In this document: positions 1 through 38,787 of the stretch, one piece after another
How positions within the stretch are numbered: the first letter of the stretch is position 1
Layout of the letters: each line of letters begins with the position of its first letter
Position numbers and translations under genes: made by a program
Assembly: GCA_024277675.1 (NCBI GenBank)
Contig: JAJRUS010000030.1
Coordinates: 1-63,188 of the forward strand
Reading direction: 5' to 3'
Length of the DNA: 63,188 bases
Origin: a bacterium
Lineage (GTDB): Bacteria; SZUA-182; SZUA-191; JAJRXT01
Notes under the pieces: model-generated
The model's input: only the letters and a program-made list of their open reading frames with translations
The model's database searches: none
What the model was told of the DNA's origin: nothing

Positions 1-311
1 TCCATATCCTCCAGGGTATCGGTTACTACCTCAACAACATCGGTAAAATTACGGCAACCGGCAGCCGCCACATTGACCGCCAGCGAACCCAGGGTATCGG
101 TATCGACAGCATCCAAAGCCAGCTTATACCAGCCGGCGACAAGCTCCGTCCAGCTACCGTCAGATGGAGCGGCAAAGGCTCCCCCATGCTTGCTTAAAGT
201 TACGGTGGGACTTACAATACCCGTCTCCGGAGTATAGCCATCGGTTGCATCCACCAGGTAAACATATAGAAAGCTGCCGGTGGCCTGCTTGATTTGAGTT
301 ACGTTTTTCAT
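1..311 (-). CDS. Hypothetical phage structural/tail-region protein, 5' part only (runs off the window)
   Basis: Not in the ORF track. My translation from ATG at 311: MKNVTQIKQATGSFLYVYLVDATDGYTPETGIVSPTVTLSKHGGAFAAPSDGSWTELVAGWYKLALDAVDTDTLGSLAVNV...; beta-rich, open to position 1, follows the tape-measure-like gene. Confidence 0.7.
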   Translation of the reverse strand, partial: MKNVTQIKQATGSFLYVYLVDATDGYTPETGIVSPTVTLSKHGGAFAAPSDGSWTELVAGWYKLALDAVDTDTLGSLAVNVAAAGCRNFTDVVEVVTDTLEDM

Positions 312-351
312 TGCCTGCTCCTTATTTAATAACTGTGGCCTGCCGTTATTC

Positions 352-993
352 TTACCTGATGCTTCTTATAAGTTGATAGGTGCTACCCTGTGAATTAAGG
401 TCCTGATGCACCATATTCAACACCATATCCGCATTCTCGCTTAAGGCCTTGGTCAACTGCTGCTGCATAAATTCTTCGGAGAAGGCGTTTATGATATAAG
501 TCGGCCGTTCCCGTTGTTTTGTCTCACCCTCAAAACGCACCGGCACCCCTCCCCCTTTAAGCGGCACCACTGCTTCCGGGCTGCCGGCTTCGGCTACCAG
601 CCCCAGCGTGGGCCGGTTATACACCCCCCCGTGCTGCATGGGAGTAACCGGTATAAACCGACCGGGCATAATGCCGCCTTCGGCAAACGACATAAGCCCT
701 AAGGCCCCTTCTACTGCACCGGAGGCCGCTCTTTGAGCCACAATGCGCGACAGGTCATTCAAAAATCCGTCGGCAAAATCAGCAAAAGCGGCTTTGGCCG
801 ATTTAGCCTGAGTGGTGAAATCATACAAGGCATCGCCCAGATTCCGTTGTACAGCGGCCGCCTCAACGGCATAGCGATTCTGCCGGGTCATCACATCCTT
901 GATGTCGGCTAAAGCCCGGACTGACATCCGTCTTATCTCTTCCATGTCCGTGGTTTGCTCCCTTATCATAGCTGCTGCCATAACCAACCCCAT
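352..993 (-). CDS. Short tail tape-measure-like protein (C-terminal lambda-H-type region only, 213 aa)
   Basis: Ala-rich helical segment (DALYDFTTQAKSAKAAFADFADGFLNDLSRIVAQRA) followed by FAEGG...HGGVYNRPTLGLVAEAGSPEAVVPL, typical of tape measure C-termini; start codon uncertain. Confidence 0.75.
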   Translation of the reverse strand: MGLVMAAAMIREQTTDMEEIRRMSVRALADIKDVMTRQNRYAVEAAAVQRNLGDALYDFTTQAKSAKAAFADFADGFLNDLSRIVAQRAASGAVEGALGLMSFAEGGIMPGRFIPVTPMQHGGVYNRPTLGLVAEAGSPEAVVPLKGGGVPVRFEGETKQRERPTYIINAFSEEFMQQQLTKALSENADMVLNMVHQDLNSQGSTYQLIRSIR

Positions 994-1421
994 CCTTCAA
1001 GTTAACTGCTATATTAGTATCTCAGCTTGTGTAGCGGGCTGGCCCGCCTCCGTGTCCTCTGTGGTTTAAGTCTTTTTTTAATTACCTGCTTATATGTCTG
1101 TGTAACATGAGTTATCAAGTAATCAGCATGCTGCCTACTATTACATATTATAACCATTCTGTCAAATACGGTTACGTTACGCAAATAGCAAGGGCGCTAC
1201 CGTTATGGCGGCCTATGTTACAATTTGCAACACATGCTTAAAATAGCCCCTCTTTTTGCGCTTTTTCGCTTGTTTTTACACTATGCCGGATTTTCGGGAA
1301 CAGCAGCTATTATTTGATCAGCCCTTAAGCAAACTTAAGTTGCATTAAGCGTCTTCAATCGTTATACTGCTTTTTGAGAATACCATTCTTTAATAACAGA
1401 TAAAAATTCAAGGAAAACCAT

Positions 1422-2810
1422 ATGTGTCTGTCTGATCCTGTATTATCTGCATACGGAGTAGCCTCCAGCATACCGGCCCCCATAAACCGCATGATGGCCA
1501 GATTCGCCGGAAGCTTCAGGAGCGGGGTGGATATAAACCTGGGCGTGGGCTATGTAAATGAGGAAACCATCCCCCGGGATTTGATTCAGAGTGCGCTTAC
1601 CCAGGTGCTGGCTGATCCCGAAAAGTATAAAGTCGCCCTAAACTACGGCGGTCCCAAAGGCTCGCCCAACCTGATACAGTCGCTGCGTGATTTTCATATA
1701 ACCCGGAAGATAGGCGGTCTGACCGAAGATGTGCTTAACCGTAAAGAAATGATTATCGGCCCCAGCGGGGCCACCAGCTCATTAGAGGGCATTGCCCACA
1801 CCCTGAACAGGGGTATAGTGATTACCGACGATCCCAAATATTTTATCTATACCCACCTACTGGAACGCCTAGGTTTTGAGCTGCTGTCCGTGCCGCAGGA
1901 CTGCGATGGGATACAACCCGAATTGCTTAAGCAGAAAATAGCCGCCCTGGGAGAGCGCCAGCAGGAGATCAGCTTTGTTTATATAGTAACCATAAACAAT
2001 CCCACCGGCGCTATCCTTACCAATGAACGCCGCAGAGAGATTGTGCGCATAATCAGCGATGTATGCCGTAAGCAAAACCGGCGGATTCCCATTATCTTCG
2101 ATAAGGCTTATGAATTACTGATTCACCACCCGGCGGTACCCGCTCCGGAATCGGCCTTATTATATGATGAGCTTAATATTGTATATGAAGTGGGCAGTCT
2201 GTCTAAGATTGTGGCCCCTGCCCTGCGTATCGGTTACTTAATCGGCCCCCCCGGCGATTTCATAAACGCCCTGGTGCAGAAGACCAGCGATGTGGGCTTC
2301 AGCGCCCCCCTGATTACCCAGGAGATCGCCAGTTACTTTCTGGATCATCATATACAAGCACAACTGCAAAAGGTAAACCAGGGCTATCGGGCCAAGGCAG
2401 CCGCTATCAGCCGGTATATCGACACCGAGCTGCGCCCGTTAGGGGTGAGCTATTGCGGGGGACAGGCGGCATTTTACTACTACCTGACCCTGCCGGAAGG
2501 GATACACACCCATGAGGACTCACCCTTCCACCGCTTTTTAAACCGCAATACCGGTGATAAGCAAATAGATTTTTTAAATGGAGTTGAAAAGGGGCCTATG
2601 GTTTCTTATATTCCGGGCAGCTTTTGTGTACATGCCCAAGGTGATCTGGTGGAGCTGGGCAAACGCCAGTTCCGCATATCCTATAGCTTTGAAAGCTTAG
2701 AGAAGATTGAGGAAGCCCTGGGCTATTTCCGGCAGGCCATTTTGTTCTCTCAGCAAGCCACCTGCGGTGGGGCAATGAACCTGCTGTGGAGCAATGAAAA
2801 GATAGACTGA
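1422..2810 (+). CDS. PLP-dependent aminotransferase, class I/II (MocR/Aro8, 2-aminoadipate transaminase-like)
   Basis: INNPTG, IIFDKAY and the PLP-lysine motif SLSKIVAPALRIG; lies on the opposite strand inside the phage tail module. Confidence 0.85.
   Translation: MCLSDPVLSAYGVASSIPAPINRMMARFAGSFRSGVDINLGVGYVNEETIPRDLIQSALTQVLADPEKYKVALNYGGPKGSPNLIQSLRDFHITRKIGGLTEDVLNRKEMIIGPSGATSSLEGIAHTLNRGIVITDDPKYFIYTHLLERLGFELLSVPQDCDGIQPELLKQKIAALGERQQEISFVYIVTINNPTGAILTNERRREIVRIISDVCRKQNRRIPIIFDKAYELLIHHPAVPAPESALLYDELNIVYEVGSLSKIVAPALRIGYLIGPPGDFINALVQKTSDVGFSAPLITQEIASYFLDHHIQAQLQKVNQGYRAKAAAISRYIDTELRPLGVSYCGGQAAFYYYLTLPEGIHTHEDSPFHRFLNRNTGDKQIDFLNGVEKGPMVSYIPGSFCVHAQGDLVELGKRQFRISYSFESLEKIEEALGYFRQAILFSQQATCGGAMNLLWSNEKID
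2758..2779 (+). repeat. 22-bp dispersed repeat ccacctg(c/t)ggtggggcaatgaa, copy 1, within the aminotransferase 3' end
   Basis: 21/22 identical to 51177..51198; a degenerate tandem copy follows at about 2780-2800. Confidence 0.75.
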
Positions 2811-2837
2811 GTCAGGCATTGAACCTCATAAACCTGC

Positions 2838-3154
2838 TTAAGGCTCTCTTTGGAGATAATCCCCTATTTCCCGCTCTATTAATTGCATCGCCTGTAAGTA
2901 TTTATAGGGTTGCCCTGATAAGCCCCCCTCATGCAGCAAGAACCCCTTGCGATAATGCTGATACAGGGCCATAAATTCCCCGGTGGCTCTGCTTAACAGC
3001 CTGACCGGACAACGGGTTAAGCGCTGACCTTCAAATTCAAATTGCGCCTGGGGCGTTGTGCAACAGCCCGGTATATTTTCAGCTTAGCGGTGCATACCCC
3101 ACAGTCAAACCCTTCACCTTGCAGGGCCAGGTATACACCTAGGCGCAGTTTTTT
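2838..3154 (-). pseudogene. gpGT-like frameshift extension of the tail assembly chaperone, broken by a further 1-nt frameshift near 3068
   Basis: The -1 frame reads KLRLGVYLALQGEGFDCGVCTAKLKIYR and then stops at 3017. The conserved-looking remainder (GCCTTPQAQFEFEGQRLTRCP...YRKGFLLHEGGLSGQPYKYLQAMQLIERE) lies in the next frame and ends at 2838. Confidence 0.65.
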
Positions 3155-3543
3155 GCCTCATCCTCCGATAACCGGGAAGCAGAGCGAAAAGCCGCCGCCA
3201 GCTCAGCACGCCAGGCCGGGGGCAGTACCGCCAGAAACTCATCCTGCTTATCCCGCTCACTGGGCCAGGTGATATCTTCACCGGCCTCATTCTTTAGTCG
3301 TTCCACCCGGAGCAGACAACTGCGGATAAGCTCCGCCTCGGCTCTTCTATCGGGCCGGTATATAGTGCGCAGACTCTCACCCTGATTGGGATCGCCCTCA
3401 AACTCGATCTCATCCGCCATAGCATACTGAGTCGCCAGATCCGCCACCCCATACCACCACAGCGTCTGCTCATGGGCGGGCAACTTACGCTCTTCCCTTA
3501 ATACATATGGATACTCTTTACCGAAAATACGCACCACCGCCAT
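3139..3543 (-). CDS. Tail assembly chaperone (gpG-like), 134 aa
   Basis: RBS GAGGAGG before ATG at 3543 (the track start at 3732 is too far upstream); position downstream of tail genes; slippery heptamer just before the stop. Confidence 0.7.
   Translation of the reverse strand: MAVVRIFGKEYPYVLREERKLPAHEQTLWWYGVADLATQYAMADEIEFEGDPNQGESLRTIYRPDRRAEAELIRSCLLRVERLKNEAGEDITWPSERDKQDEFLAVLPPAWRAELAAAFRSASRLSEDEAKNCA
3148..3154 (-). promoter_or_regulatory. Programmed -1 frameshift site A_AAA_AAC
   Basis: GCA AAA AAC TGC GCC TAG: X_XXY_YYZ heptamer in the correct phase at the chaperone 3' end, as in lambda G/GT. Confidence 0.75.
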
Positions 3544-3601
3544 AAAACCTCCTCTTCTAATTTTATGCTGTTGATTTATCAAAACGGTAAATTTATTTAT
3601 T

Positions 3602-4057
3602 TTAAGCCGGGTTATAGCGAATATACTCATCCACCGACAAATGTATTTCACCCACATGGGCCAGAATACCGGCAAAGCGCCGCCGCATAACCTTGGCCAC
3701 CCTGGGGGGATCAGCCCCGAAACAACTTCCATTTAAGTTATTATTCTCTCGCAGCTTATCGCATATCTTTTCCAACAGATCACGGAAAACTTTTTCGCTT
3801 TCAGCGCTGTCCTTCTGCCCATATACCCCTTCAATTTTTATCAGGTGCTTAAGGATATTTACTACATTTGCGTGAATTTTTTCATCCGATTGCGGGCAGG
3901 TAATAACCCAAGCATTAAGCCGGTTATTATCATCAGTAAACAGCTTCAACAACGTCTTCCAGTCAACTGTCCAGCGGTCATAATCGTGTACTTTGCCCAC
4001 CCCGTCCACCAATTCAATGATAGTTTTTAATTGGGTTATGATATCTGACAGGCTCAT
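3602..4057 (-). CDS. Tail completion/terminator-like protein, paralog B
   Basis: Clear paralog of 6798..7256 (GKVHDYDRWTVDWKT; NLNGSC; AGILAH; EYIRYNPA); size and position fit a tail completion protein, but the function is inferred. Confidence 0.6.
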   Translation of the reverse strand: MSLSDIITQLKTIIELVDGVGKVHDYDRWTVDWKTLLKLFTDDNNRLNAWVITCPQSDEKIHANVVNILKHLIKIEGVYGQKDSAESEKVFRDLLEKICDKLRENNNLNGSCFGADPPRVAKVMRRRFAGILAHVGEIHLSVDEYIRYNPA

Positions 4058-4452
4058 TTTTGCTCCTCTTCCTTTCTTGTTTCATTGGAGCTGGAGGCAT
4101 AAGGATAATTAGCACAGCTATCCATTTCTATATGGATATGGTTGCGTGTTCTCCTTATAAAATGCTCACTTACTACCTGATAAAACGGCCCCAAGCGAAC
4201 TTGCAGATCATGAACCAACTCGTCCTGGGCATCATCAGGCATGGAATCTGTCCAGATATCTATGGCCTGCCCAAAGAAGTGAAAGGATGGATTTTCCTTT
4301 TCAATATCTTCAGGCTCGGGTTCTCTCCTCCCTGAAGTTATCGTGGGTGTAGTATAACCATAATTAGCCCAAGTATCATCCATTATGGGGAAGAGATCGT
4401 AAATTTCTTGGCACATGTCCTCCATATTAATTCCATGGGCTATATCCGGCAC
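4054..4452 (-). CDS. M15-family Zn peptidase (peptidoglycan endopeptidase/endolysin-like), no signal peptide
   Basis: ITSGRR, SFHFFGQAID and NHIHIE motifs give the His/Asp/His zinc ligands of peptidase M15; ATGA overlap with the downstream gene. Confidence 0.75.
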   Translation of the reverse strand: MPDIAHGINMEDMCQEIYDLFPIMDDTWANYGYTTPTITSGRREPEPEDIEKENPSFHFFGQAIDIWTDSMPDDAQDELVHDLQVRLGPFYQVVSEHFIRRTRNHIHIEMDSCANYPYASSSNETRKEEEQK

Positions 4453-4455
4453 TAA

Positions 4456-5166
4456 TCAATTACCTCCTTTTCCTGAATAACAGCCACCAGTCGGAATAAA
4501 CCTTTCCAGGCTGGGGCACCAAATATATACCTGCCGATCTTCACCTACTGAAAAATAACCAAAACAGGGAAGCTTATTGTTTTGGAACACTTCCTGATAA
4601 ATTTGCTCAACTTGTTGTTGTTCGATAGCTATCGAATCCATTTTCTTTCTATATTCAGAAAGGGGTACTGATTTTTTCCAAGTGTTGGATTTTTTCTCGC
4701 CCGCTATCTTTTCAAATTCAACCTGTTGCAGAAAAAACTTAATTCCTTCTTTAATCTCTTCTGTAGAACAAGCAAGTGAGTAAGTACATTTAAATTGACA
4801 CCGCTTATTGCTGGATGTGTCGAAACAGAGACTTCCCAGAAAGTTGGTTATAGAATCTCTGACCTTGGCCTCACTGTAATCCTCCCCATGGGAATCGGTA
4901 TATATCCGCCAGGTGTTCCAAGCATCAGAAAAGATTTCCTTCTCCTCTTTGGTGTTGGGATCAATCCGGTAGATACGGAAGGACACATCCAGATGAATCA
5001 ATTCCGGCCCGGAGTACGAAAACACCAGCTTCTCCTTCACCCCATCGCCGGTTAAATCCTTATACATTACCTCAGAGTGCTCAAGCCTGAGCTTATCGGG
5101 CCCAGCCGCACCCAGCAAAAACAGGCAGGATATTGTTACAGCAACACGTGCAGATATTTTTCTCAT
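4456..5166 (-). CDS. Secreted hypothetical protein (candidate hydrolase inhibitor/immunity protein)
   Basis: N-terminal signal peptide (MRKISARVAVTISCLFLLGAA), DLTGDGVKE Ca-loop-like motif, Lys-rich, several Cys. Confidence 0.6.
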   Translation of the reverse strand: MRKISARVAVTISCLFLLGAAGPDKLRLEHSEVMYKDLTGDGVKEKLVFSYSGPELIHLDVSFRIYRIDPNTKEEKEIFSDAWNTWRIYTDSHGEDYSEAKVRDSITNFLGSLCFDTSSNKRCQFKCTYSLACSTEEIKEGIKFFLQQVEFEKIAGEKKSNTWKKSVPLSEYRKKMDSIAIEQQQVEQIYQEVFQNNKLPCFGYFSVGEDRQVYIWCPSLERFIPTGGCYSGKGGN

Positions 5167-5197
5167 ATTATTTTCCCCGACAATCTACGCTCTTCCT

Positions 5198-5341
5198 TTA
5201 ATACACTATGGCAGCCCAAACCGTCCTGTCCCAGGATTGCCATTTTGCATCATCCCGGATAGTTTCTTTTAACAGCTCATCATCGGTAACCAGAGGGCTA
5301 TATTCACCCGGGACAGTAACCACATCTTTAATAGTGAGACT
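5198..5341 (-). pseudogene. Start-less fragment of a second SleB-like hydrolase allele (SLTIKDVVTVPGEYSPLVTDDELLKETIRDDAKWQSWDRTVWAAIVY*)
   Basis: 5216..5330 matches 6402..6516 with 3 mismatches in 115 bp; it diverges after RTVW and stops at 5198; an in-frame TGA lies immediately upstream. Confidence 0.8.
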
Positions 5342-5361
5342 TCAGAACCAACCGCTTTTAA

Positions 5362-5952
5362 TTAATTCTCACTAAACATGTTACTAAGCCACCATTTTCC
5401 ATCACGATAGATAAAGGATGGCGAAACGAAGGTTTCTTTCTCCCAAAATGGTTTCTTTCCTTCCCAGTTAAAACTTATATACCCCCAACTTAAATAATAT
5501 CCTCCTCTGAAGCGTTTTTTAATTTCTGCGTTTATCTTTAAATTCTTCACATTTATCAAATAATCTTTAATTGACTTCCACTCTCTGGCCTCTTTGCGGT
5601 ACCCCCTAACTTTTTCTTGATAGCACTTGCTGTTAAACAAACGACAATATTCAAAGCTGTTTTTATCCTTAAGTCTGGCTAATAGTTCGTTTTTGTCCAA
5701 GTAGTAATCAGCTCCTACTGCCACCCTTATGCTACCATGTAAAAAATTTGCTAATCTATCAACATCCTCATTTACAATTATATGGAATAATTCCTCTCCT
5801 ACTTTTTGCAACTCTGCCAATCTTTTGTAGTAGGTAGCCTTTTCCTCACCAGACAACAAGTCAAGTTGGTTCTCCTTCCCCCAAGATGTCCCCATTCCAA
5901 AAGTTAAGAATACAATCAGTAAGGCAGATTGCAAACAGCAACATTTTTTCAT
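5362..5952 (-). CDS. Secreted hypothetical protein (candidate immunity protein for the upstream M23 hydrolase)
   Basis: Signal peptide (MKKCCCLQSALLIVFLTFGMGTSWG), Lys-rich, visibly AT-rich DNA, start overlaps the M23 gene stop. Confidence 0.6.
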   Translation of the reverse strand: MKKCCCLQSALLIVFLTFGMGTSWGKENQLDLLSGEEKATYYKRLAELQKVGEELFHIIVNEDVDRLANFLHGSIRVAVGADYYLDKNELLARLKDKNSFEYCRLFNSKCYQEKVRGYRKEAREWKSIKDYLINVKNLKINAEIKKRFRGGYYLSWGYISFNWEGKKPFWEKETFVSPSFIYRDGKWWLSNMFSEN

Positions 5953-6776
5953 TATGGTAAATATTCCTCCGGGTTGACCCGATTATCAATGGTTCCATCC
6001 GGTGAAACCGTAAAATGTAAATGTGCTGCGGTACTTCGTCCACTTAAATCAACATGTCCAATTACCTGCCCCCTTTTTACCTCTTGCCCCTCTCTTACCG
6101 ACGGTGTCATATGATAATAACCGGTGTAATAGCCTCTGATACCTCTGATTATCACCCTATTTGCTCCTGTGTCATCACGACCTTTCTTCACTACTACCCC
6201 ACTTTCCGCAGCATATACTGCTTCACCTTTCGCCGCCTTAATATCAATACCTTTGTGCTCCTCTTCTTTTTCAACATTAAAAGGATCCGGCCTTGTACCA
6301 AACCCGGAAGTAATTTGTCTGCCCCTAACCGGCCACATGGGAGTAGAGTCTTTTTGCAGGGGATTGTCAAAATCCGGGGCGCCGGCCACATCGGTGGCAA
6401 TCCAAACCGTCCTGTCCCAGGATTCCCAGTTTGCATCATCCCGGATAGTCTCTTTTAACAGCTCATCATCGGTAACCAGAGGGCTATATTCACCCGGGAC
6501 AGTAACCACATCTTTATAAGTAGGGCCTGCCTGTCTTTCCCGGTGGCTTCTTATCTCCCAGGCCATGGTTCGTCTGGCTTCATCGCTTGGGCCTGCCCCC
6601 CAGAAGATGGCCTTCGCCAACCAGTATATATCTTCCGGGATAAATAATATAGCCCCATTTTTGAGGTATGTCCTGGGGTATTCCTCCTCCAGAATAGCCT
6701 TATCATACTCATTCAACATATTATAATACTGGCGCTCTGCTTGGGGCAGTACGTCGGGGAAGGTAATCTCGGACAT
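5952..6776 (-). CDS. Peptidoglycan hydrolase: N-terminal SleB/Hydrolase_2-like domain plus C-terminal M23 metallopeptidase, no signal peptide
   Basis: M23: ITSGFGTRPDP, HKGIDI, YYHM, STAAHLHF. N-domain: YWLAKAIFWGAG...MAWEIRSHR...TYKDVVTVPGEYS resembles SleB. Confidence 0.85.
   Translation of the reverse strand: MSEITFPDVLPQAERQYYNMLNEYDKAILEEEYPRTYLKNGAILFIPEDIYWLAKAIFWGAGPSDEARRTMAWEIRSHRERQAGPTYKDVVTVPGEYSPLVTDDELLKETIRDDANWESWDRTVWIATDVAGAPDFDNPLQKDSTPMWPVRGRQITSGFGTRPDPFNVEKEEEHKGIDIKAAKGEAVYAAESGVVVKKGRDDTGANRVIIRGIRGYYTGYYHMTPSVREGQEVKRGQVIGHVDLSGRSTAAHLHFTVSPDGTIDNRVNPEEYLP
6402..6516. repeat. 115-bp direct repeat, copy within the M23 gene (other copy 5216..5330)
   Basis: Direct comparison by eye: 112/115 identical. 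Confidence 0.9.
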
Positions 6777-6797
6777 TGTCTTTTCTCCTCTGGCTAT

Positions 6798-7256
6798 TTA
6801 AGCTGGGGTATACCGAATATACTCTTGCACTCTGAGGAGTATCTCGCAACGATGCGCAAGAATACCGGCATAGGGGCTGGGCGAGAGCACGCTTACCTGG
6901 GGTGGATCGCTGGTTAAGCAACTGCCGTTTAGGTTGTCATGGGTACGCAATACCGAGCGAATCCCCTCAATCAAATCCTGAAAAGCCTTTTCACTCTCTT
7001 TGCTATCTTTTAATCCATAATAGCCCTTGATGATAAACGCATGCGTGCTGATATTCACCGCTCCTGCGGCATGTAGCCGTTCCTGGGCGCCGCTACGCGT
7101 AATCACCCAACCATTGATCTTATTATCCGCATCCTTGAAGTAACTCAAGAAGGTCTTCCAGTCGGTAGTCCAGCGCTCAAAGTCATGTACCTTGCCGATG
7201 CCGGGCACGGTTTCCAGTAGATTTTTAATTTCGGTGCGTATTTCAGCCAGTCCCAT
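6798..7256 (-). CDS. Tail completion/terminator-like protein, paralog A
   Basis: GKVHDFERWTTDWKT...NGWVITR...EYIRYTPA; paralog of 3602..4057; adjacent to the tail tube gene. Confidence 0.6.
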   Translation of the reverse strand: MGLAEIRTEIKNLLETVPGIGKVHDFERWTTDWKTFLSYFKDADNKINGWVITRSGAQERLHAAGAVNISTHAFIIKGYYGLKDSKESEKAFQDLIEGIRSVLRTHDNLNGSCLTSDPPQVSVLSPSPYAGILAHRCEILLRVQEYIRYTPA

Positions 7257-7267
7257 TTGCGCCCCCC

Positions 7268-8194
7268 CTATGTAAGCTCAATCTTTAGCTCATCATCACC
7301 ATTATTGCGGTTGCACTCAAAATCAGCCCCCAGGGTGCGCGCCCTGCTGCGTTCGGCCAGTCCCAACTTGGTATAACGGCATTTGGGTGCGGTAATGGTT
7401 ACAATATTTCCGGCGATAGCTCCCAGGGCAAGGGTTATGGCGCCTTCACTGCCATTGCGCCATTTACTGTACCAATCATAATCGGCTACCAGGGTTAATT
7501 CAGGGTCCAGCGAGCCTGCGGGACGCCGGCCGGTTAATAAGGCACTGCTATAGCCGCTGGGCCGGTTTATATCAGAGCGTAATTGCAGGGTGTTGGCTAT
7601 GTCCAAATCCAGTTTTTCAATTAGTGCCGAGTAGCTGTCAACCGAAAAGCCGGCCGACAGAAACCGTTCCGGTTCGCTACTGTCGTAGCTAACCCCGGCA
7701 AGCATAACCGCATCGGTAACTTCAAAATCAGCCCCGCTAAATTCAAAGGCCAGCCTGCCCGGCTCACCGGCTGAGAGGTTCAGGCGCACCGTGCCCCTGG
7801 CTCCCCACAGCTTACTCAGTAAGCCGTCCATATAAAGCGCCAGAGTTATTGAGGGAATAGAACTGGAAGCCGGGGCATAGCTGACGCTGGTCGAGGGTAC
7901 AATCGTCTCATCAAAGCCGCAGGCCCGCATAAGCTCCCCCCACTCAGGGGCCACCCCCGGACTGCCGGAACCCTTAAGCTCTACTTCAAAAGCAAGCCTG
8001 GCCGAGCGGCGTCCGCTCAACGATTTATAGGCCGATAAATCCGAGCCGACTATTTTTCGCTGATGCATCTCCACCTGGGGCTTAAAGCCGGGATTAATCA
8101 CCAGGAGTGCATCCCCCGCACCCGGATTTTCAGCCGTACCCTCCAGCGCTTCCAGCTTAGCCGCCAGTTGGGTTTTTTGTAATAAAATCGGCAT
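7268..8194 (-). CDS. Phage tail tube protein (siphovirus-type major tail protein)
   Basis: 308 aa; FEVELKGSG..GVAPEWGELMRACG, RRPAGSLDPE and ITAPKCRY pattern of phage tube proteins. Confidence 0.8.
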   Translation of the reverse strand: MPILLQKTQLAAKLEALEGTAENPGAGDALLVINPGFKPQVEMHQRKIVGSDLSAYKSLSGRRSARLAFEVELKGSGSPGVAPEWGELMRACGFDETIVPSTSVSYAPASSSIPSITLALYMDGLLSKLWGARGTVRLNLSAGEPGRLAFEFSGADFEVTDAVMLAGVSYDSSEPERFLSAGFSVDSYSALIEKLDLDIANTLQLRSDINRPSGYSSALLTGRRPAGSLDPELTLVADYDWYSKWRNGSEGAITLALGAIAGNIVTITAPKCRYTKLGLAERSRARTLGADFECNRNNGDDELKIELT

Positions 8195-8219
8195 AATGTT
8201 CTCTCCATGTATTAAAGAT

Positions 8220-8300
8220 TTTCACCACAAAGACCACAAAGAACTTCTTAAAAAATCTATTTGTTTTTTCCTCTGTGATCTTTGTGCTCTTTGTGGTAAA
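8220..8300. repeat. REP-like imperfect palindrome (caccacaaagaccacaaaga...tctttgtgctctttgtggt)
   Basis: Inverted arms visible; related half-copies at about 1051-1068 and 32772-32930. Confidence 0.7.
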
Positions 8301-8309
8301 TACTTCAGT

Positions 8310-8984
8310 TTATCTCTGTTTTCTGGGATGGTTCAGCCTATCCCCACCCCAGGGGTAATCCACATCCAGGTCTTTGACAGCCGAAGCGGCGCCGGGGCCT
8401 TTCTGCTTACCCATAAAATTGTTATATCTTTGTTGTAACTCTTTAGCCCGCTGGGCATAGGCATTTGATTTACCATGATAATCCACCACATCCGCCTCAA
8501 TGGTTGAATCAGAAGTCTGGGCGTAAATGCGAGATAAAGCCTCGCAACATAGAGCCGAGGCCAACAAAACCAGACCATCCTGCATGGAAGCCGGAATCTC
8601 ATCCAGGCTTGCCTCATCATATGGGGTGGTGTAGCTGAGGCGCAGGATTTCACCAGCTTGTGGAGTATGATTTATAAGTAGCAACTTCTCCCCGACAGTG
8701 GATTTATAAATGCTATAATCGGCGGCCTCCAGATAAACCGGCGCCCGTTTCCCGGTGGGATATTCCACTTTCTGCAGCCAGGAGACGCCGGCTTGCCAGT
8801 CAGTCGGCAGATTATACTGATAACCGCCGTCAGCGACAATATCGGCCACCCGCATTCGGGGATAATCCCTGCTGAAATAACTCAACGCCTCCAGGATAAA
8901 ATTATCGGTCTCCCCGGTTTTGAGCTTACCGGCCTCATCCTGCATGAGCCGTCTGACCTTAGTTCTATAATCTATGATTGACAT
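8310..8984 (-). CDS. Head-tail adaptor/connector protein
   Basis: Position after the capsid; helical N- and C-termini with a central beta insert (YQYNLPTDW...LRLSYTTPY; ASALCCEALS...). Confidence 0.6.
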   Translation of the reverse strand: MSIIDYRTKVRRLMQDEAGKLKTGETDNFILEALSYFSRDYPRMRVADIVADGGYQYNLPTDWQAGVSWLQKVEYPTGKRAPVYLEAADYSIYKSTVGEKLLLINHTPQAGEILRLSYTTPYDEASLDEIPASMQDGLVLLASALCCEALSRIYAQTSDSTIEADVVDYHGKSNAYAQRAKELQQRYNNFMGKQKGPGAASAVKDLDVDYPWGGDRLNHPRKQR

Positions 8985-9035
8985 TAAAATGCGGTCTCTT
9001 TCTTAAAGGTTACGATAATTTTGATTAAAGCAGGC

Positions 9036-9218
9036 CTAGCCTGCCTCGCCGCGCCATAGTTCACGGTCATACAACAATCTCTGCCTGAGCATACACTGCT
9101 CATCCACCGTATCGTACAGCGGGCAACCGGCATTAGTATTCTCGGCTAAGATAGCGGCACAGGTTTTTGAACTGGTAGCCGCAGATGAAAACGGGCAGTT
9201 ATAAGTAGGGGCTGCCAT
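9036..9218 (-). CDS. Small Cys-rich phage protein (60 aa)
   Basis: RBS GGAGG before ATG at 9218; four Cys (NCPF..TC..GCPL..QC). Confidence 0.55.
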   Translation of the reverse strand: MAAPTYNCPFSSAATSSKTCAAILAENTNAGCPLYDTVDEQCMLRQRLLYDRELWRGEAG

Positions 9219-9255
9219 AATATAATTCCTCCATAAAAAGTGCATTATACATAAA

Positions 9256-9278
9256 GGGGAGGCCATATATGCCTCCCC
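9256..9278 (-). terminator. Putative rho-independent terminator after the capsid gene
   Basis: 8-bp GC stem ggggaggc/gcctcccc followed by TTTAT on the minus strand. Confidence 0.55.
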
Positions 9279-9288
9279 CGAACAATCA

Positions 9289-11211
9289 TTATGCTACTAC
9301 CGATTTGTACATGCCGCGATGATCCAGCACACAGATACCGTAAATGTGGCGTATTTTATAAGTGATCTTATCCTGAGTGAACATCGAACCGGCAGTCGGC
9401 TGATCCTGAACGAATAATTCCGGTTCCTCGTTACCGTTAAAGAAACCGACCTCAACAGTGGGACAGTCCGCCGGGTCGCACACCACCGCCCAGTCGTTGG
9501 CATCCGTCCAGTAAGGCAGCACAATTACGCCCAGCCCATATGCTGAATGGATATTCGGCTCAGTACCGGCATTATTGGCAGCCCCTACCAAGGTGGACGA
9601 AGTGCTTAGACGATAGGCCGAATCCTCAAGCTCCAGCGGCACCAGCAGCCACTTAGCGGTAAGCCCCAGAATATCCACGCTATCCCCGTAAGCCGCCTGC
9701 TCACTCATGGTGATCTTGGCCGAGAGCAGGGAGTTAGCGCTTAAAGCGCTGCTGCCTAAGTTACTGTGCCCGGCATCGAATATGGGCAGCGCATCATATG
9801 AGGTGGCGTTATTGTTAACGATAATGTCAAACACGCTTTTATACAGGGTTCTGGCGGCCGCCCGGCCCAGTTTCTGGTGAATGTGGCGGATGGCCCCGAT
9901 ATCATCATTGGCGATCATCTCCAGGGTTAAATCCTCCAGACCACCTTTCTTGGCAATGCTGAAGGTGGCTTCCTCGTCACCGGGAGAGGTCAGGTTCTGG
10001 TAGCTGGCCGACTCGTTCACCGCTGGCAGAGTGCCGTAACCGCCGACCCGCATGCGCCGGTTAGTGCTGAAATCCCGCACTGCGGTCACATCGGATACAA
10101 TTTTACGCCAGTCATCCAACCCCGGTGTATTGTATTCAGCCAACATGCGGCGGGTGATGGACTCACCCAGAATCTCGGCCCAGGAGCTGCTGGTCAGCGA
10201 TTCGGTAAACTTGGTCAGATTACGGGCTTCCCGCAACTGCCCGCTTAAGGCATTGTCACCGGTGATAGTCACATAGGCTTCCCTGAAGGAGCGAAAGCGG
10301 GGCACTCCGGCTATATCCCGGTTGGCAAAAAAACCATCCAGCGCCTTTAAGGTACGCTCACCTCCCCCCAGGCCCAGCTCTACCTTAGTTGCTCCGGCTC
10401 CCTTGACCCGGTGAGTGCCGGAGATACGGGCCAGGAAATCCCGCTCATCTGAAATCGCCTCCCGTAGTTGAGTTTCATTGAAAACTCTCGAGGCAAAGCG
10501 GCGGCTTATCTTCTGCTGAGCCAATTGCGGCAGCCCGCTATTTTGCAGCGCTTCAACCAGCATTAATCTGCATTTAGCCTCCGCCAGCTCATTTTCCAGG
10601 CGTGACAGCCGCACATCGGAATCAGCGGCTGAGTCTGGCTGTTCAGCCACTTGTTGTTCAACAAAATCTCCCACATTTTCCAGCATAATTTCCTCCTCCT
10701 CATGTTTTGGACCAACACCGGCAACCAACTTCTCAATCCGGCCGCCAGCCGCTGGATTAACCACCACATCCACCAGATCCACCCGCTGAATACGGTCTAC
10801 CCATTTAACAAAACCCTTCTTTTCTCTAACCAGCCGGCTTACCCCCTGGGCCACTATAGAAAAGCCCACAATGTCATGCTTGCCCCGCTGCCAGGCATCC
10901 AGCATCAATACCCGCAGCCACTCGGCCGCCTCGGATATATGAAAGCCGGCCTTTATCTTGCCGTCCACAAACTGCGGCTCACTAAACCAACCCACAATAT
11001 TTTTTACATCTTTATTTATATATTTAATGTGCTGCTCATCCGCCCGGGCCAGCGCCCGCACCCCGGAAAAAAGCGGAACCGCTTCTTTCAGCACCGGCGG
11101 GGGATAATAGAAGCCATTACCGGACTTACCGGCTTCGATGATCACTACCTCCCACTCCCGCCCGGCTTTAGCCTGCGACTCTATAAGCGGTACATAAGAA
11201 TCAAGCTGCAT
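9289..11211 (-). CDS. Prohead protease-scaffold-major capsid fusion (Mu gpT-like capsid domain), 640 aa
   Basis: N-terminal protease motifs (EAGKSGNGFYY, EQH, GFSI, VDVVVNPAAGG), coiled-coil linker, C-terminal gpT-like LLVPLELE...WTDANDW...VEVGFFNG..EPE...ITYKIRHIYG. Confidence 0.85.
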   Translation of the reverse strand: MQLDSYVPLIESQAKAGREWEVVIIEAGKSGNGFYYPPPVLKEAVPLFSGVRALARADEQHIKYINKDVKNIVGWFSEPQFVDGKIKAGFHISEAAEWLRVLMLDAWQRGKHDIVGFSIVAQGVSRLVREKKGFVKWVDRIQRVDLVDVVVNPAAGGRIEKLVAGVGPKHEEEEIMLENVGDFVEQQVAEQPDSAADSDVRLSRLENELAEAKCRLMLVEALQNSGLPQLAQQKISRRFASRVFNETQLREAISDERDFLARISGTHRVKGAGATKVELGLGGGERTLKALDGFFANRDIAGVPRFRSFREAYVTITGDNALSGQLREARNLTKFTESLTSSSWAEILGESITRRMLAEYNTPGLDDWRKIVSDVTAVRDFSTNRRMRVGGYGTLPAVNESASYQNLTSPGDEEATFSIAKKGGLEDLTLEMIANDDIGAIRHIHQKLGRAAARTLYKSVFDIIVNNNATSYDALPIFDAGHSNLGSSALSANSLLSAKITMSEQAAYGDSVDILGLTAKWLLVPLELEDSAYRLSTSSTLVGAANNAGTEPNIHSAYGLGVIVLPYWTDANDWAVVCDPADCPTVEVGFFNGNEEPELFVQDQPTAGSMFTQDKITYKIRHIYGICVLDHRGMYKSVVA

Positions 11212-11214
11212 CAG

Positions 11215-11373
11215 TTAATCCCTCCCCCTCCGCCAGATTAATTTTTGACCGTGGCCGGTCACCAGTACCAGCCGGTCGCCATATTCCTTCCAGGCCAGCA
11301 GATCATCCCGTTTAAGCTTAAGTGCTTTCAGGGCCGATTTAAGCTCTCCCTGGCGCTCTTTCTTAATATCCAT
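11215..11373 (-). CDS. Small phage protein (52 aa) between portal and capsid
   Basis: Not in the track (<60 aa). RBS AAGGAG, then ATG: MDIKKERQGELKSALKALKLKRDDLLAWKEYGDRLVLVTGHGQKLIWRRGRD; fills the gap exactly. Confidence 0.65.
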   Translation of the reverse strand: MDIKKERQGELKSALKALKLKRDDLLAWKEYGDRLVLVTGHGQKLIWRRGRD

Positions 11374-11387
11374 TTCATCTCCTTCGG

Positions 11388-12734
11388 TTATGCTGGAGTT
11401 TTTAACTCCCGTTCAACATCTATATCCACCCCCAGCCGGGCGGCCAGTATGCCGAATACCTGGGCGGCGGTACGCTTGCTAACCCAACCCCGATCCTGCG
11501 CTGTCTGCAAGGCAACAGTTACCCGCTGCAGGGAGCTGGTCAGGGCGCCTATATCTTTAAGCGATATCTCCGGCATAATAAGGCTGAAGGGGGACATATC
11601 CCCATTACTCAGCTCAGCCGGTAGTGTCCGGTGGATGATGGCCTGGTCTATACAGAACCTGAATATATGCTCCAGCATGTATTTAAAATAGCGCTGGCGG
11701 GCAGCCAGACGTTTTATGGTAGGCTCGCCCATCTCGGCGGCGGTGGCCCGGTTGGTCTCTCCCCCTTCGGCAAACCAGTGCTCCGGAAAACCGGCGCCCC
11801 CCAGAATATGATTTTTTAAAAGGCGCGCCTCGCTTGATGCGTCATTGGCCTTTAGGTCCGGGGCTACCGCCCTATACTCCACATTTTCGTTATGCGCCCG
11901 CACCGAACCGGGTTTGGGGGCCGGGGTATTGCGCAGGAAGCGCTCAATCTCCTCCTGGGTCAGCCCTTTTAAGGTAACATCCCACACAAAGGCATTTATC
12001 AGCGCCGCCCGATCCAGCCGGTTGAACAAAAACTCATCATAGCCTGAAAGCCAGTCGGCCAGGGCCAGTAAATCAGAACGTCCGCGGGTGGAGTTTGAGA
12101 CACTGTTTACCTTGAAGAAAAAACACTCGCCGGTCAGATAGCCATAGGTTTCACTCATCGGGTCTTCATCCAGTTGGACTACCTTCAGCATCCGGCCCGC
12201 TTGTGTGCCTGTACCCTTTAGCTTGACATGGGTGATAAGCTCGCAATTATCGGCATCGGCCAGCACCTCATCGATGTGCAGCGGATCGATATAGCCCAGG
12301 CGTACCTGGCCGTTGTATTCATTAACTGCCGCCGTATAACACTGCTCGCCGTATAATCCCAGCTCCAGCACCTTCTGATGCTGCTTTAAGTCCCATAGAT
12401 TTACCGGATCGCGCCAGAAGGCGTCCAGGACACCTTTAACGGCATCATCGGCAGCCTCATAGGTTATTCCCTCGCCCACCACAAAATCCTTGGTCAGCTC
12501 AATAATACGATGGGCCAATGGATTGGTTTCATATAAATGGTAGGCGATCTGGAGCATCCGCTCCTGCTTTAAGGGAGATAAATCCTTGTTTTGACTGCCG
12601 GTCAGTTTACGGTACAAATGCTCATCGGCATCGATCCCGCCGCCACCCGGCAGGGCCTCGCGAATGCCCTGCTTAATCTGCCGGTTTATATAGTTACCGG
12701 CAACTAACTTCAATAATTTATGCTGCATCCCCAT
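11388..12734 (-). CDS. Phage portal protein
   Basis: 448 aa directly after the terminase; YETNPLAHRIIELTKDFVVGEG, RGRSDL, GAGFPEHWF, ATAAEM..PT. Confidence 0.85.
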   Translation of the reverse strand: MGMQHKLLKLVAGNYINRQIKQGIREALPGGGGIDADEHLYRKLTGSQNKDLSPLKQERMLQIAYHLYETNPLAHRIIELTKDFVVGEGITYEAADDAVKGVLDAFWRDPVNLWDLKQHQKVLELGLYGEQCYTAAVNEYNGQVRLGYIDPLHIDEVLADADNCELITHVKLKGTGTQAGRMLKVVQLDEDPMSETYGYLTGECFFFKVNSVSNSTRGRSDLLALADWLSGYDEFLFNRLDRAALINAFVWDVTLKGLTQEEIERFLRNTPAPKPGSVRAHNENVEYRAVAPDLKANDASSEARLLKNHILGGAGFPEHWFAEGGETNRATAAEMGEPTIKRLAARQRYFKYMLEHIFRFCIDQAIIHRTLPAELSNGDMSPFSLIMPEISLKDIGALTSSLQRVTVALQTAQDRGWVSKRTAAQVFGILAARLGVDIDVERELKTPA

Positions 12735-12738
12735 TAGC

Positions 12739-14514
12739 TTACCCCCATACCCTTTTGCGATTCGACCGATACCAGCCCTTGGGCGGCTCTAAACCACTTA
12801 TTGCCGCCGGTACAAAATGCATGAGCGCCCGATATAGATAAGTCAGCGCCTTTAGCATATCGATATGCCCTGAACCGGCAGGCTTGATAAGCCGCATCTT
12901 ATCATGTCCCTTAATTTCATAGCGGCAACTTTTAAGCTGCCGGCAAAGCTCGGCATATTCGGCGGAATCATCGTTGCGAAATATCTTAAGTCGCTCATTA
13001 TTAATCAGCGCCAACAGGCCATAACAATCCTGGCTGACCGAATTACTATCGGCGGCATATGCGGTAACTCCGGGATAATGTTTAGCCAGGTACTTGGCAA
13101 TCTGCTCGCCCACCCCCCTGGCATCCACCACGGCCGCCTTGGGCCGCCACAGCTTAAGCAGCTTAAGCAGGCTTGATTGCTGACCCGGCAGACCGCTTGG
13201 CTCATCTCCCAGAGATTTACCCGTCCACCAATAAATATCCACCAGCCGGCAGGCCGGATAGTCATTCCGCAGATTCCCCGGCTCAATCTCAAATACCAGC
13301 GCTACCGTACTGTCCCTGGCCCCCCTGCTTTTCTTGGCCGGATCATCCTCTTCGGCCTCGGCCTCACCGGCAATATCGATGCTGACTATATATTCCCGGC
13401 CATCCCGGGGAGCGGCATAGCGCTGATGTTCAGCATTAAGCAGGTTGCTGATATGATGAGCCTTCAGATACCCACCCAGCGTGTCCACATCCACCAGATC
13501 ATATTGAGTGAGAATCACCGGATGATCAGCCCCCAATTTGCGCAGCCGTTCCTCATAGTGCCTGGCATACTGGGGCAACAATTCACACCAGATGTGGGCC
13601 GGATAGGAAAGATTTAATTCAGGATTATGCTCCTGGTTATGCTGTACATATTCATATAATAAATCCTGTTTATCGGCGGCCACTCCCCACATGATAATCG
13701 GTACATTATGATAGGCCGCCATAGGGCCGAAATCCTCCTCGAACTTGCCCTTGTCCACCTTATGCGCCTCATCTATATCCAGCGCAATCGAGGCGGTAGA
13801 GCCCACCACATTGGCGCCCTTGTCGGTGGACAGGAAAACTAGCTGCGCCTGACCGTGTTCCAAAATAAAACCCTCCCGGCGCTTATAATCATTATTGATT
13901 AAGGGATCCATTTTTAAAAATTTCTCCACCCGCTGTTTTGAATTTATCATCTGAGGTTTCCAGGTGGGTGCGGTGCGAATGTAAGTACCGCCCTGCTCCC
14001 GGTAATTAATAAGCGCCCGCACACATAACATAGCCGAACATTCATTCTTCATGGTCTGTCTGGCGCTGCGCACCGTGATTACTTTGCCGGTTTTGTTTGT
14101 AATGTGCTCTTCAATTAAACTGATAGCCTCAGCCTGAGGCGGAAAAAGCGGCAAATTATATAATGTAGTACGATGAAAAACCACATCACTAAGCGCTCTC
14201 TCCACCAGAGACTCAAGCCGATTGGCCTGAGAATCATCCCCTATATTATCCATTTGCCGGGCCAGGCGCTGCCCCTTCTGGGCAATGCTCAGAGAACTTG
14301 AAAGCCTCAAAATATCCAGGGGTTTTATCTTATCCTCGTCCGTCGGCTGACTAAGCTCATCCAGCCGGCACAGATGATCAATTATTTTTTGTATCAATAA
14401 TTGATAGGCCTTGAAATGCTCGATGTTAATCTGTGCTATATCATGCTCATTTACCCCTGGGGTGATGCCCGGCTTTTTGGTTCTCCTCCCGCATTTTTTT
14501 TTATTTTTAGCCAT
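12739..14514 (-). CDS. Terminase large subunit with an ~110-aa N-terminal extension
   Basis: ATPase: PPQ adenine motif, SARQTMKNE (atypical Walker A), LDIDEAH (Walker B). Nuclease acidic motifs: SIDIAG, VVDARGVG, HIDMLKAL. Confidence 0.85.
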   Translation of the reverse strand: MAKNKKKCGRRTKKPGITPGVNEHDIAQINIEHFKAYQLLIQKIIDHLCRLDELSQPTDEDKIKPLDILRLSSSLSIAQKGQRLARQMDNIGDDSQANRLESLVERALSDVVFHRTTLYNLPLFPPQAEAISLIEEHITNKTGKVITVRSARQTMKNECSAMLCVRALINYREQGGTYIRTAPTWKPQMINSKQRVEKFLKMDPLINNDYKRREGFILEHGQAQLVFLSTDKGANVVGSTASIALDIDEAHKVDKGKFEEDFGPMAAYHNVPIIMWGVAADKQDLLYEYVQHNQEHNPELNLSYPAHIWCELLPQYARHYEERLRKLGADHPVILTQYDLVDVDTLGGYLKAHHISNLLNAEHQRYAAPRDGREYIVSIDIAGEAEAEEDDPAKKSRGARDSTVALVFEIEPGNLRNDYPACRLVDIYWWTGKSLGDEPSGLPGQQSSLLKLLKLWRPKAAVVDARGVGEQIAKYLAKHYPGVTAYAADSNSVSQDCYGLLALINNERLKIFRNDDSAEYAELCRQLKSCRYEIKGHDKMRLIKPAGSGHIDMLKALTYLYRALMHFVPAAISGLEPPKGWYRSNRKRVWG

Positions 14515-14537
14515 ACGGCGGTTTTTTTACTCCCCGG

Positions 14538-14789
14538 CTATAGGAGCCTATCGGACGTAGGCTCAATCTTCATATGCCAATACTTGGATTCCGGAACTAT
14601 ATGGGCTTTACGAATTACCCATTTTCCGCTTAACCAATATTTACCGACCAGAAAGCGGCGCTTCCCCTTCACCGCTTTTTTTATTAATTTTCCCAGGCGG
14701 CAATATTCCTGATAGGCGCCTTTCAACTCCAGATAGCGTTTAACCCAACACTCCAGGTCTGTTTCCATTGCAGGGGATACCTTACTCAT
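14538..14789 (-). CDS. Small basic hypothetical phage protein (83 aa), first gene of the cluster
   Basis: Co-oriented ORF upstream of the terminase; Lys/Arg/Trp-rich; no motif recognised. Confidence 0.55.
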   Translation of the reverse strand: MSKVSPAMETDLECWVKRYLELKGAYQEYCRLGKLIKKAVKGKRRFLVGKYWLSGKWVIRKAHIVPESKYWHMKIEPTSDRLL

Positions 14790-14853
14790 GCTATTATTTG
14801 ACCCGATCTATTCATAAAAAAGACGCCCTGGTAAATGCATTTAAGCTGGAACT

Positions 14854-14881
14854 ATTTTACATTATAACACTAATATGTCAA
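14854..14881 (-). promoter_or_regulatory. Putative sigma70 promoter for the phage cluster
   Basis: TTGACA-N16-TAAAAT on the minus strand about 65 bp upstream of the first ATG. Confidence 0.4.
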
Positions 14882-15035
14882 ATACAGTTACAAACCGTAA
14901 TACAGCAGAACCCAGCACATGAGGCCGCTATAGTTACAATTCGCAACATTTCTTATGTTATCGTTATATTATGTTGATTTGCTGTGTTTTCTGAATTGGA
15001 TTGTTTTTGAGGGGTATTCCGGGTTGATATTCTCT

Positions 15036-15067
15036 GCTACGAACCCTAAAGTCCGACAAGCTCCTAG
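15036..15067 (-). mobile_element. Isolated end of a CTAG-targeting IS/MITE
   Basis: 31/32 identical to 57216..57247 (right end of the MITE); its CTAG supplies the TAG stop of the TPR gene. Confidence 0.8.
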
Positions 15068-29637: not shown

Positions 29638-29784
29638 GGGTATCTTGAAAAATTGCTCTCCTCTCCGATTGACGGCGTCGCAGATCGTCTCAAAATGCTC
29701 ATGTACCAGCATGTACACTGCGCTTTTTCGACTCGCTGCTCCTTGTTCTCGAAGAAAATTTCTAATTTTTCAAGATACCCTTAA
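29634..29784. mobile_element. MITE-like element with 18-bp terminal inverted repeats bounded by TTAA
   Basis: ttaagggtatcttgaaaa ... ttttcaagatacccttaa; the left TTAA contains the permease stop codon; non-coding interior. Confidence 0.8.
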
Positions 29785-33977: not shown

Positions 33978-33981
33978 CATC

Positions 33982-35097: not shown

Positions 35098-35103
35098 CAT
35101 ATT

Positions 35104-36231: not shown

Positions 36232-36248
36232 AAGGAATTAGTTTTAAA

Positions 36249-38482: not shown

Positions 38483-38520
38483 TTTGTTCGGCGGGAAAAT
38501 CACTCATGAGAGGATAGCAT

Positions 38521-38781: not shown

Positions 38782-38787
38782 GAGATT

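Follow-up and report, generated by a model that had tools for sequence, protein, structure and literature searches.

The first 15 kb of contig JAJRUS010000030.1, which was analysed at its full length of 63188 nt (hereafter the window, identical to the entire contig), raise the question whether a set of phage structural genes lying beside bacterial housekeeping genes is a particle-making system kept by its host or the remnant of a prophage. The genes form a minus-strand phage morphogenesis array that runs from position 14948 down to position 1, with host genes beside its promoter end; the left edge of the window is the contig end, and the cluster continues past it. Our answer, held tentatively and with a little less than even confidence, is that positions 1 to ~15000 constitute a non-autonomous, gene transfer agent (GTA)-like head-neck-tail cassette, derived from a Mu-like transposable siphophage and maintained by selection for a benefit to the host; the cassette is possibly now decaying. 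This answer is built on gene content, synteny, selection and the conservation of an operator, all of which were observed. An earlier note on this DNA had considered a decaying prophage and a domesticated particle equally possible; of its three signs of erosion, that in the chaperone gene T is real, whereas the other two and the argument from host repeats did not hold, and the comparisons reported below speak for long residence with selection rather than for simple decay.

A second copy of the cluster (L003, in the metagenome-assembled genome, or MAG, Dive96_bin10.231) was found at the same lnt-prfB-TPR junction as in the window. The gene order ScpA-CDP-lnt-prfB-TPR is common to the window and its relatives from the MAGs named next, and the spacer of the window and that of L003 are homologous and aligned throughout the junction. 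According to PMC9769843, the MAGs containing L003 and a further copy, L002, are classified in the GTDB phylum SZUA-182 and come from vent chimneys of the Southwest Indian Ridge. Nei-Gojobori estimates for the window versus L003 gave, for the cluster genes, a synonymous divergence (dS) of 0.65-1.5 and a ratio of nonsynonymous to synonymous divergence (dN/dS) of 0.07-0.16, and for the flanking host genes a dS of 0.69-1.0 and a dN/dS of 0.07-0.175. Polarisation of the changes with two other copies, L001 and L020, as outgroups assigned 43 nonsynonymous and 151 synonymous changes to the window branch, and 39 and 165, respectively, to the L003 branch. Since change was mostly synonymous on both branches, purifying selection has kept the genes after the window and L003 split; and since packaging, capsid, connector and tube genes are all under such selection, some host benefit, i.e., domestication, is suggested. 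The test of synteny and dN/dS across relatives that had been proposed earlier hence came out in favour of a maintained cluster as far as L003 is concerned (same locus, dN/dS ~0.1), and against it in that the next-closest relatives are without the cluster at this locus.

From the promoter, the array proceeds through an open reading frame (ORF) of 83 amino acids (aa), TerL, portal, a 52-aa ORF, the protease-capsid fusion, a 60-aa Cys-rich protein, adaptor, tube and a 152-aa terminator, after which follow an accessory block, a second terminator, G, the remains of T, an aminotransferase, a second promoter copy, the tape measure and an ORF that runs off the edge. The core features are the following:

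14854-14948, minus strand: regulatory module 1, with the palindrome TGTTGCGAATTGTAAC (14933-14948), GTAACTGTATTTGACA (14876-14891, which contains the -35) and the -10 TAAAAT (14854-14859)
14538-14789, minus strand: 83-aa ORF, possibly a small terminase or a regulator, no family match
12739-14514, minus strand: large terminase TerL, 591 aa, matched by Pfam Terminase_6C only
11388-12734, minus strand: portal, 448 aa, phrog_10963 (E=3.5e-48), 90% identical to the L003 copy
11215-11373, minus strand: conserved 52-aa ORF in the portal-capsid gap, with homologues at the same position in L001, L003, L019 and L020
9289-11211, minus strand: prohead protease/major capsid fusion, 640 aa, Phage_capsid_4 (E=5.9e-47) and Mu-like_gpT
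9036-9218, minus strand: 60-aa Cys-rich protein, ORF open up to 9266, 83-95% identical in five of five relatives
8310-8984, minus strand: head-tail adaptor, 224 aa, weak SU10_adaptor match on orthologues, conserved position, dN/dS 0.08-0.14
7268-8194, minus strand: tail tube, 308 aa, Phage_tube_2 (E=8e-16) and phrog_290
6798-7256, minus strand: tail terminator, 152 aa, AlphaFold model with pLDDT 85 and Foldseek matches to terminators
3602-4057, minus strand: second tail-terminator paralogue, 151 aa, 54% identical to the gene at 6798-7256
3139-3543, minus strand: tail assembly chaperone G, 134 aa, dN/dS 0.15 versus L019
2841-3147, minus strand: T part of the G-T chaperone, broken, with remains in two frames (3157-3020 and 3083-2841)
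1137-1232, minus strand: regulatory module 2, the second palindrome and promoter copy, upstream of the tape measure
352-993, minus strand: short tape measure, 213 aa, phrog_24 and phrog_339, Tape_meas_lam_C (E=1.1e-4) just below the cut-off
1-311, minus strand: tail gene, its first 103 codons, running off the contig end, 80% identical to a 173-aa L019 protein

From the 83-aa ORF to the 152-aa protein, the series of ORFs is unbroken on the minus strand (14789 to 6798), which confirms the earlier account of this part.

A contrary view of the same genes is that they belong to a cryptic, defective Mu-like prophage that has lost its early region and has no host function, the signal of selection dating from when the element or recombining relatives of it were active. 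Neutral decay over a dS of ~0.8 at a shared junction would have filled every ORF with stops, whereas 0-1 lesions per gene and ~4 synonymous changes per nonsynonymous one were seen on both branches. Nor was a closely related donor for gene conversion seen, as the second cluster in the MAG of L003 (L007) is only ~53% identical in its capsid. We consider a functionless prophage unlikely on these grounds, with the lesions and missing tail modules described next, the foreign genes and duplications within the operon, the patchy distribution of the cluster and the empty site in close host relatives speaking in its favour.

A further set of observations weighs against a cassette maintained by selection. 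Of the six copies, four have inactivating lesions or are missing tail modules: in L003, the portal and adaptor genes each contain one nonsense codon and TerL has a poly-A frameshift at its 5' end; L001 has frameshifts in capsid and tube; L001 and L002 are without G/T chaperones, tape measure and tail tip, and have non-phage genes on both sides; and comparison with an intact relative shows that the T frame of the window has lost 1 nt from an A-run near 3070-3083, on account of which the window copy may be freshly impaired. Being few, the lesions are either recent or assembly errors. With respect to the locus, L182 and L183 (TPR 63-65% identical) have an empty site, at which TPR is directly followed by hisH-hisA-hisF, and the window's similarity to these empty-site relatives stops at the TPR stop codon. 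Only L003 shares the locus, the other copies being located elsewhere, and inheritance across the lineage was hence not simply vertical. The agreement in dS between cluster and flanks could be coincidental, if related phages integrated independently, and at third codon positions the core genes have a GC content of 0.54-0.62, a little higher than the host average (0.51 +/- 0.06). In addition, the contigs of the window, L003 and L019 all stop short of the far end, so that early genes may lie beyond the tail; for the window copy, whose left end is the contig end, this applies to an integrase or an early module. The lesions, the loss of tail modules in some copies and the differing loci are what keep our preference for a selected cassette a cautious one, just below the even mark.

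Another proposal is that the window contains one end of a complete temperate prophage, with its genes for lysogeny, replication and lysis control located past the tail and off the left contig end. The cluster does run off the left edge, nothing past this edge is present in this assembly since the window is the whole contig, and L003 and L019 are likewise cut short. Looking up the window's own proteins gave no sequence that would extend the contig, and a search for public sequencing runs bearing on coverage, excision or transcripts found none. In L001 and L002, however, both flanks are visible, and no integrase, transposase or replication genes were found within 10 kb on each side, both copies being structure-only on either side. 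Moreover, Mu-like relatives have their early genes upstream of TerL and not after the tail, and long co-divergence at one locus would be unusual for an active prophage. A complete prophage is thus very improbable in our estimation. On the TerL side of the visible cluster (~15 kb), no integrase, repressor, transposase or replication genes were seen in the window, and the next genes upstream of the 83-aa ORF and promoter are host TPR, prfB and lnt, which bears out the earlier statement about this end.

Among the packaging genes, TerL was the subject of a claim that did not hold. Its ATPase motifs had been described as eroded; the window's Walker A sequence, RQTMKNE, fits the consensus [SA]RQxGKNE obtained from 129 family representatives, in which K, N and E as well as the DE of Walker B are invariant, and the Gly-to-Met change is common to the closest representatives. 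An alignment of TerL from five clade members gave a mean column identity of 84%, with RSARQTMKNECS and the Walker B motif DIDEAH invariant. The protein has 743 relatives among protein representatives and, compared with typical family members, an extra basic N-terminal stretch of ~100 aa; no PHROG, NCBIfam or PDB sequence match was obtained for it. The 83-aa ORF that precedes it is kept in L003 (78%) and L001 (65%) with a dN/dS of 0.08-0.16, and is absent from L002 and L020. Residues 12-186 of the capsid fusion match the protease family phrog_15531, and the NCBIfam model scaf_prot_MCP2 scored below its cut-off. Tube, adaptor, capsid and the TerL profile were each compared with PDB sequences, and no match was obtained.

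Turning to the tail, the 152-aa terminator model matched lambda gpU, T5 p142 and other terminators in Foldseek with query-normalised TM-scores of ~0.6. Gene G has a -1 slippery heptamer, A_AAA_AAC, at 3148-3154, three codons ahead of its stop, and this site is conserved in L019 and in L006, the nearest outgroup. The deletion in the T frame means that the G-T gene is eroded in its T part, as had been suspected. A 197-aa ORF (3139-3732) was considered as the real G gene and rejected, because the conserved protein starts with MAVVR (3543) and the upstream overlap is another frame of the terminator gene. The tape measure had also been counted among the eroded genes, and here the outcome was divided. 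Short tape measures are typical of the clade and its nearest outgroup, as evidenced by the 336-aa protein of L019 (the only other clade copy retaining the gene) and the 227-aa protein of L006, as opposed to 631-751 aa in Mu-like relatives; relative to L019, ~120 internal residues are missing from the 213-aa protein, which has kept both termini. With the C-terminal half of the L019 protein it shares 62% identity, and since its N-terminus aligns with the 336-aa relative too, its interpretation as a C-terminal fragment was rejected. The tail end of L019 consists of G, T, the 336-aa tape measure, the 173-aa homologue of the off-edge gene and then DUF2460 (distal tail), hub and NlpC/P60 genes. A metagenome scan with the 173-aa tail protein and IMG/VR scans with the hub protein found nothing. 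We also considered a podovirus-like minimal particle, which was rejected as the tape measure and G/T chaperones are present.

The promoter of the array, TTGACA-16-TAAAAT at 14881-14854, matches the consensus at 11 of 12 positions and is the best promoter-like, sigma-70-like site of the region; that only this near-consensus promoter and the 83-aa ORF stand between TerL and host TPR/prfB is confirmed. An alternative promoter, TTGACA/TATAAT with a 9-nt spacer, was rejected in favour of the 16-nt spacing to TAAAAT, which fits. A 16-nt palindrome, TGTTGCRAATTGTAAC, is located 56-57 nt (start to start) upstream of GTAACYGTATTTGACA, with TTGACA, 16 nt and TAAAAT making up the promoter, and the combined module was found with the same 56-57-nt spacing twice in the window and in L001, L003 and L006. 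The presence of two copies leads us to propose that the tail genes are still expressed downstream of the gene inserted on the opposite strand. L003 has ~460 extra nt between promoter and 83-aa ORF (5950-6439), which are without a counterpart in the window. In another contig, L101, a solitary 152-aa terminator homologue (10001-10459, 70% identical) is located among the host genes FGE-sulfatase, PilZ, gltX and ispF, and the palindrome alone is found ~50 nt upstream of it.

A palindromic operator implies a trans-acting factor, and no obvious DNA-binding regulator is encoded in the visible cluster. This is one reason for considering a helper-dependent element, resembling a satellite or forming the late half of a split phage, for which a co-resident Mu-like phage would supply the late activator or repressor and the transposition functions. 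Within the clade, host genes lie directly beside the small ORF/TerL end in four contexts, namely lnt-prfB-TPR (window, L003), gyrA-PBP1 (L001), an RnfC-like gene (L002) and an HhH-GPD gene (L020); the left boundary, ~55 nt upstream of the palindrome, is alike in three host contexts, and helper dependence would account for copies at several loci with the same boundary. The MAG of L003 also carries a second, more Mu-like head-tail cluster (L007, contig JAJRUU010000149.1; capsid 53% identical, with MuF-like and stopper genes). On the other hand, neither Mu-end nor att (attachment-site) repeats were detected at the boundary, the parallel divergence of cluster and host flanks speaks against recent mobility, and known satellites carry integrase and replication genes, none of which were seen here. 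We hence regard a helper-dependent element as quite improbable, and return to the selected cassette as our preferred reading.

The surroundings of the junction were inspected for traces of integration. Scans for tRNA genes and Rfam families as an integration target found nothing. Repetitive extragenic palindromic (REP)-type host repeats had been reported within the cluster; this was not borne out, as the search turned up no more than a local hairpin (8224-8297), for which there was a single weak match, at 32788. A 42-kb direct repeat (15036 and 57216) was rejected as a pair of att sites because it is the end of a miniature inverted-repeat transposable element (MITE), with housekeeping genes between the copies. 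The MITE-like element itself, ~177 nt at 57071-57247, carries the terminal inverted repeats CTAGGAGNNTGTCGGRCTTTAG on either side of a 45-nt hairpin (57117-57211) and is apparently inserted in a coding region. Its solo end at 15036-15067, a copy with 97% identity over 32 nt, extends across the TPR stop codon, is flanked by the 11-nt direct repeat GGAATACCCCT and lies outside the cluster.

Two interruptions of the array, a block of accessory genes and an aminotransferase, comprise the following features:

4054-6776, minus strand: accessory block, GC ~0.40-0.41 over 4-6 kb
5952-6776, minus strand: M23 peptidase, in the accessory block
5362-5952, minus strand: secreted protein, 196 aa, in the accessory block
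4456-5166, minus strand: secreted protein, 236 aa, in the accessory block
4054-4452, minus strand: endolysin-like peptidase, 132 aa, for which the only tool match was a weak one (phrog_894, E=1.1e-4)
1422-2810, plus strand: class I/II aminotransferase between gpT and the tape measure, Aminotran_1_2 (E=3.8e-22), with NCBIfam matches below cut-offs only

Neither interruption had been noted earlier, nor had the second promoter copy at 1137-1232 or the ORF that starts at 311 and leaves the window on the left. The 132-aa peptidase is probably of the M15 type, as read from its H..D and HxH motifs. The N-terminal domain of the M23 protein is common to the Hydrolase_2 protein of L002; in both clusters the terminator is followed by a peptidoglycan hydrolase with this common domain and a swapped catalytic domain (M23 versus Hydrolase_2). 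A terminator gene paired with a Tlde1-like (L,D-transpeptidase-type) gene was seen in three cluster positions: L006 5782-6972, L019 11681-12633 and L001 14001-14719. PADLOC gave no meaningful match for the accessory genes. A 127-nt direct repeat (5209-5335 and 6395-6521, 94-97% identical) has one copy within the M23 gene, as an internal piece of it, and the other in the spacer that separates the two secreted-protein genes, and points to recent duplication or recombination in the block. The aminotransferase has no counterpart in the relatives, and L019 carries other inserted genes at that spot. At its 3' end, a 22-nt motif, CCACCTGYGGTGGGGCAATGAA, occurs twice in overlapping copies (2758-2798); it is also found between host genes at 51177-51198, and both sites encode ...TCGGAM.... 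Adjoining the host copy of this motif is one arm of a 50-nt inverted repeat (29634-29683 and 51229-51278). Elsewhere in the window, prfB (16956-18054, true start ATG at 18054) contains the classical programmed +1 frameshift site CTT TGA C at 17980-18054, and 33900-45000 holds about ten paralogous glycosyltransferase-like ORFs with the motif EAMA-KPVV (repeat family D1), probably an exopolysaccharide locus.

Taken as a selected cassette, the cluster would have the following history and mode of action. A Mu-like siphophage ancestor would have lost its early, transposition and lysis-control region, and the cluster would have entered just downstream of TPR in an ancestor common with Dive96_bin10.231 and been inherited vertically since. 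Transcription would start from the strong sigma-70-type promoter, guarded by the 16-nt palindromic operator GTTRC-N5-GYAAC and a factor encoded elsewhere. TerL, portal and the protease-capsid fusion would build DNA-filled heads, and adaptor, terminator, tube, the G/G-T chaperones, the 213-aa tape measure (for a tail of ~30 nm) and an RcGTA-like tip (DUF2460, hub and NlpC/P60, taken from the relatives) would form a short, non-contractile tail; the M23 and endolysin-like peptidases may serve release or entry. Because there are no replication or transposition genes, such particles would be unable to propagate the cluster and would act in a GTA-like manner. Particle production, packaged DNA and a benefit to the host are what we infer from the genes, and the cluster is best described as a credible, unproven GTA-like relic. 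A wider proposal, which we put forward as doubtful, is that a Mu-like siphophage was independently domesticated into a GTA-like system in SZUA-182, and that the occurrence of the GTTRC-N5-GYAAC operator also before an unlinked, solitary terminator gene reflects a small host-integrated regulon.

If the preferred reading is true, this would be a GTA candidate from a different phage type (Mu-like), in a phylum without a cultured member. GTAs have been proven in a handful of lineages only; candidates look like defective prophages, and outside the Alphaproteobacteria they are difficult to recognise (PMC11841831). The evidence of co-divergence and selection is concrete and the operator is testable; confirmation would broaden the view of how often bacteria keep phage particle machinery, with the operator, the N-terminal extension of TerL and the short tape measure as specific targets. 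Should the cluster be only a decaying remnant, it would still be an example of slow erosion of head genes.

Compared with known systems, the cluster is closest in its head genes to Mu-like siphophages. Capsid relatives at 72-82% identity form a small clade, and the remote ones (36-49% identity) are Mu-like. They include the L184 prophage, in which Mu Gam, Dam and an amidase precede TerL and the tape measure has 751 aa, and the closest deposited phage, Microcystis phage Mae-JY22 (41 kb; Gam, DUF3486, Dam). IMG/VR contains many 35-46-kb contigs at ~40% capsid identity, and in metagenome and IMG/VR scans with the capsid alignment the closest full-length sequence was ~50% identical, with partial matches up to 59%. 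With its Phage_capsid_4 and Mu-like_gpT matches and these relatives, the window has a Mu-type head module: relative to Mae-JY22 and L184 the capsid is 36-47% identical, and portal, adaptor, terminator and tube are in the same order. Mu has several C-dependent late promoters, and more than one putative late promoter with the same operator is seen here. The window differs in several respects: genes for repressor, transposase A/B, Gam, Dam, lysis and DUF3486 are absent upstream of TerL, MuF-like and stopper genes are missing as well, TerL is of another type (no tblastn match to that of L184 or L006) and the tape measure has 213 versus 631-751 aa. Early genes upstream of the late operon, as in a Mu-like prophage, were found in none of the window, L001, L002, L003 and L020.

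Known satellites carry integrase and replication genes; no integrase, regulatory or primase/replication module of the kind found in phage-inducible chromosomal islands (PICI), including capsid-forming PICI, was found, whether in the 15 kb that can be seen or in the sequence flanking L001 and L002. The earlier comparison with GTAs and tailocins was sound as to the GTA-like architecture and the lack of early genes on the TerL side; tailocins are tail-only, and with capsid, portal and TerL present and conserved the cluster is not one of them, nor does it belong to the RcGTA family. PBSX of Bacillus subtilis, Dd1, VSH-1 and BaGTA are likewise phage-derived structural clusters unable to self-propagate (general knowledge and PMC11841831); their particles have been proven experimentally, whereas those of the window's cluster are putative.

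By profile comparison the cluster is not a member of the RcGTA family. NCBIfam models of RcGTA g1-g15 gave no match for the TerL, portal, adaptor, tube, terminator, G or tape measure of the window, and the relatives' tape measure, distal tail protein and hub scored 22-25 bits against RcGTA_tape, TIGR02217 and TIGR02218, with cut-offs of 80-220. Capsid (a fused protease with a Mu gpT-like part), portal, Phage_tube_2 tube and TerL are of other families, and the host belongs to another phylum. GTA particles carry essentially random host DNA and do not transfer their own cluster whole, and RcGTA-type clusters are of ~15 kb, with no genes for integration, replication or lysogeny. GTAs have a small terminase without a specific DNA-binding domain (PMC11841831). 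Tail-tip genes of the RcGTA kind are also described in the true phages RDJLphi1 and phiJL001 (PMC3070671). The likeness is one of organisation. As far as the window shows its cluster, which runs off the contig, both are morphogenesis-only clusters beside housekeeping genes, and both begin with a small ORF followed by TerL. Both have a very short tape measure, as the earlier note had pointed out (213 aa in the window, a clade range of 213-336 aa, and 227 aa for L006, versus the 220 positions of the RcGTA_tape profile). The relatives' distal tail genes (DUF2460/TIGR02217, the Phage_BR0599/TIGR02218 hub and NlpC/P60) fall in the broad families of g12-g14, and the window and L003, as a pair, show the same co-divergence with the host under purifying selection.

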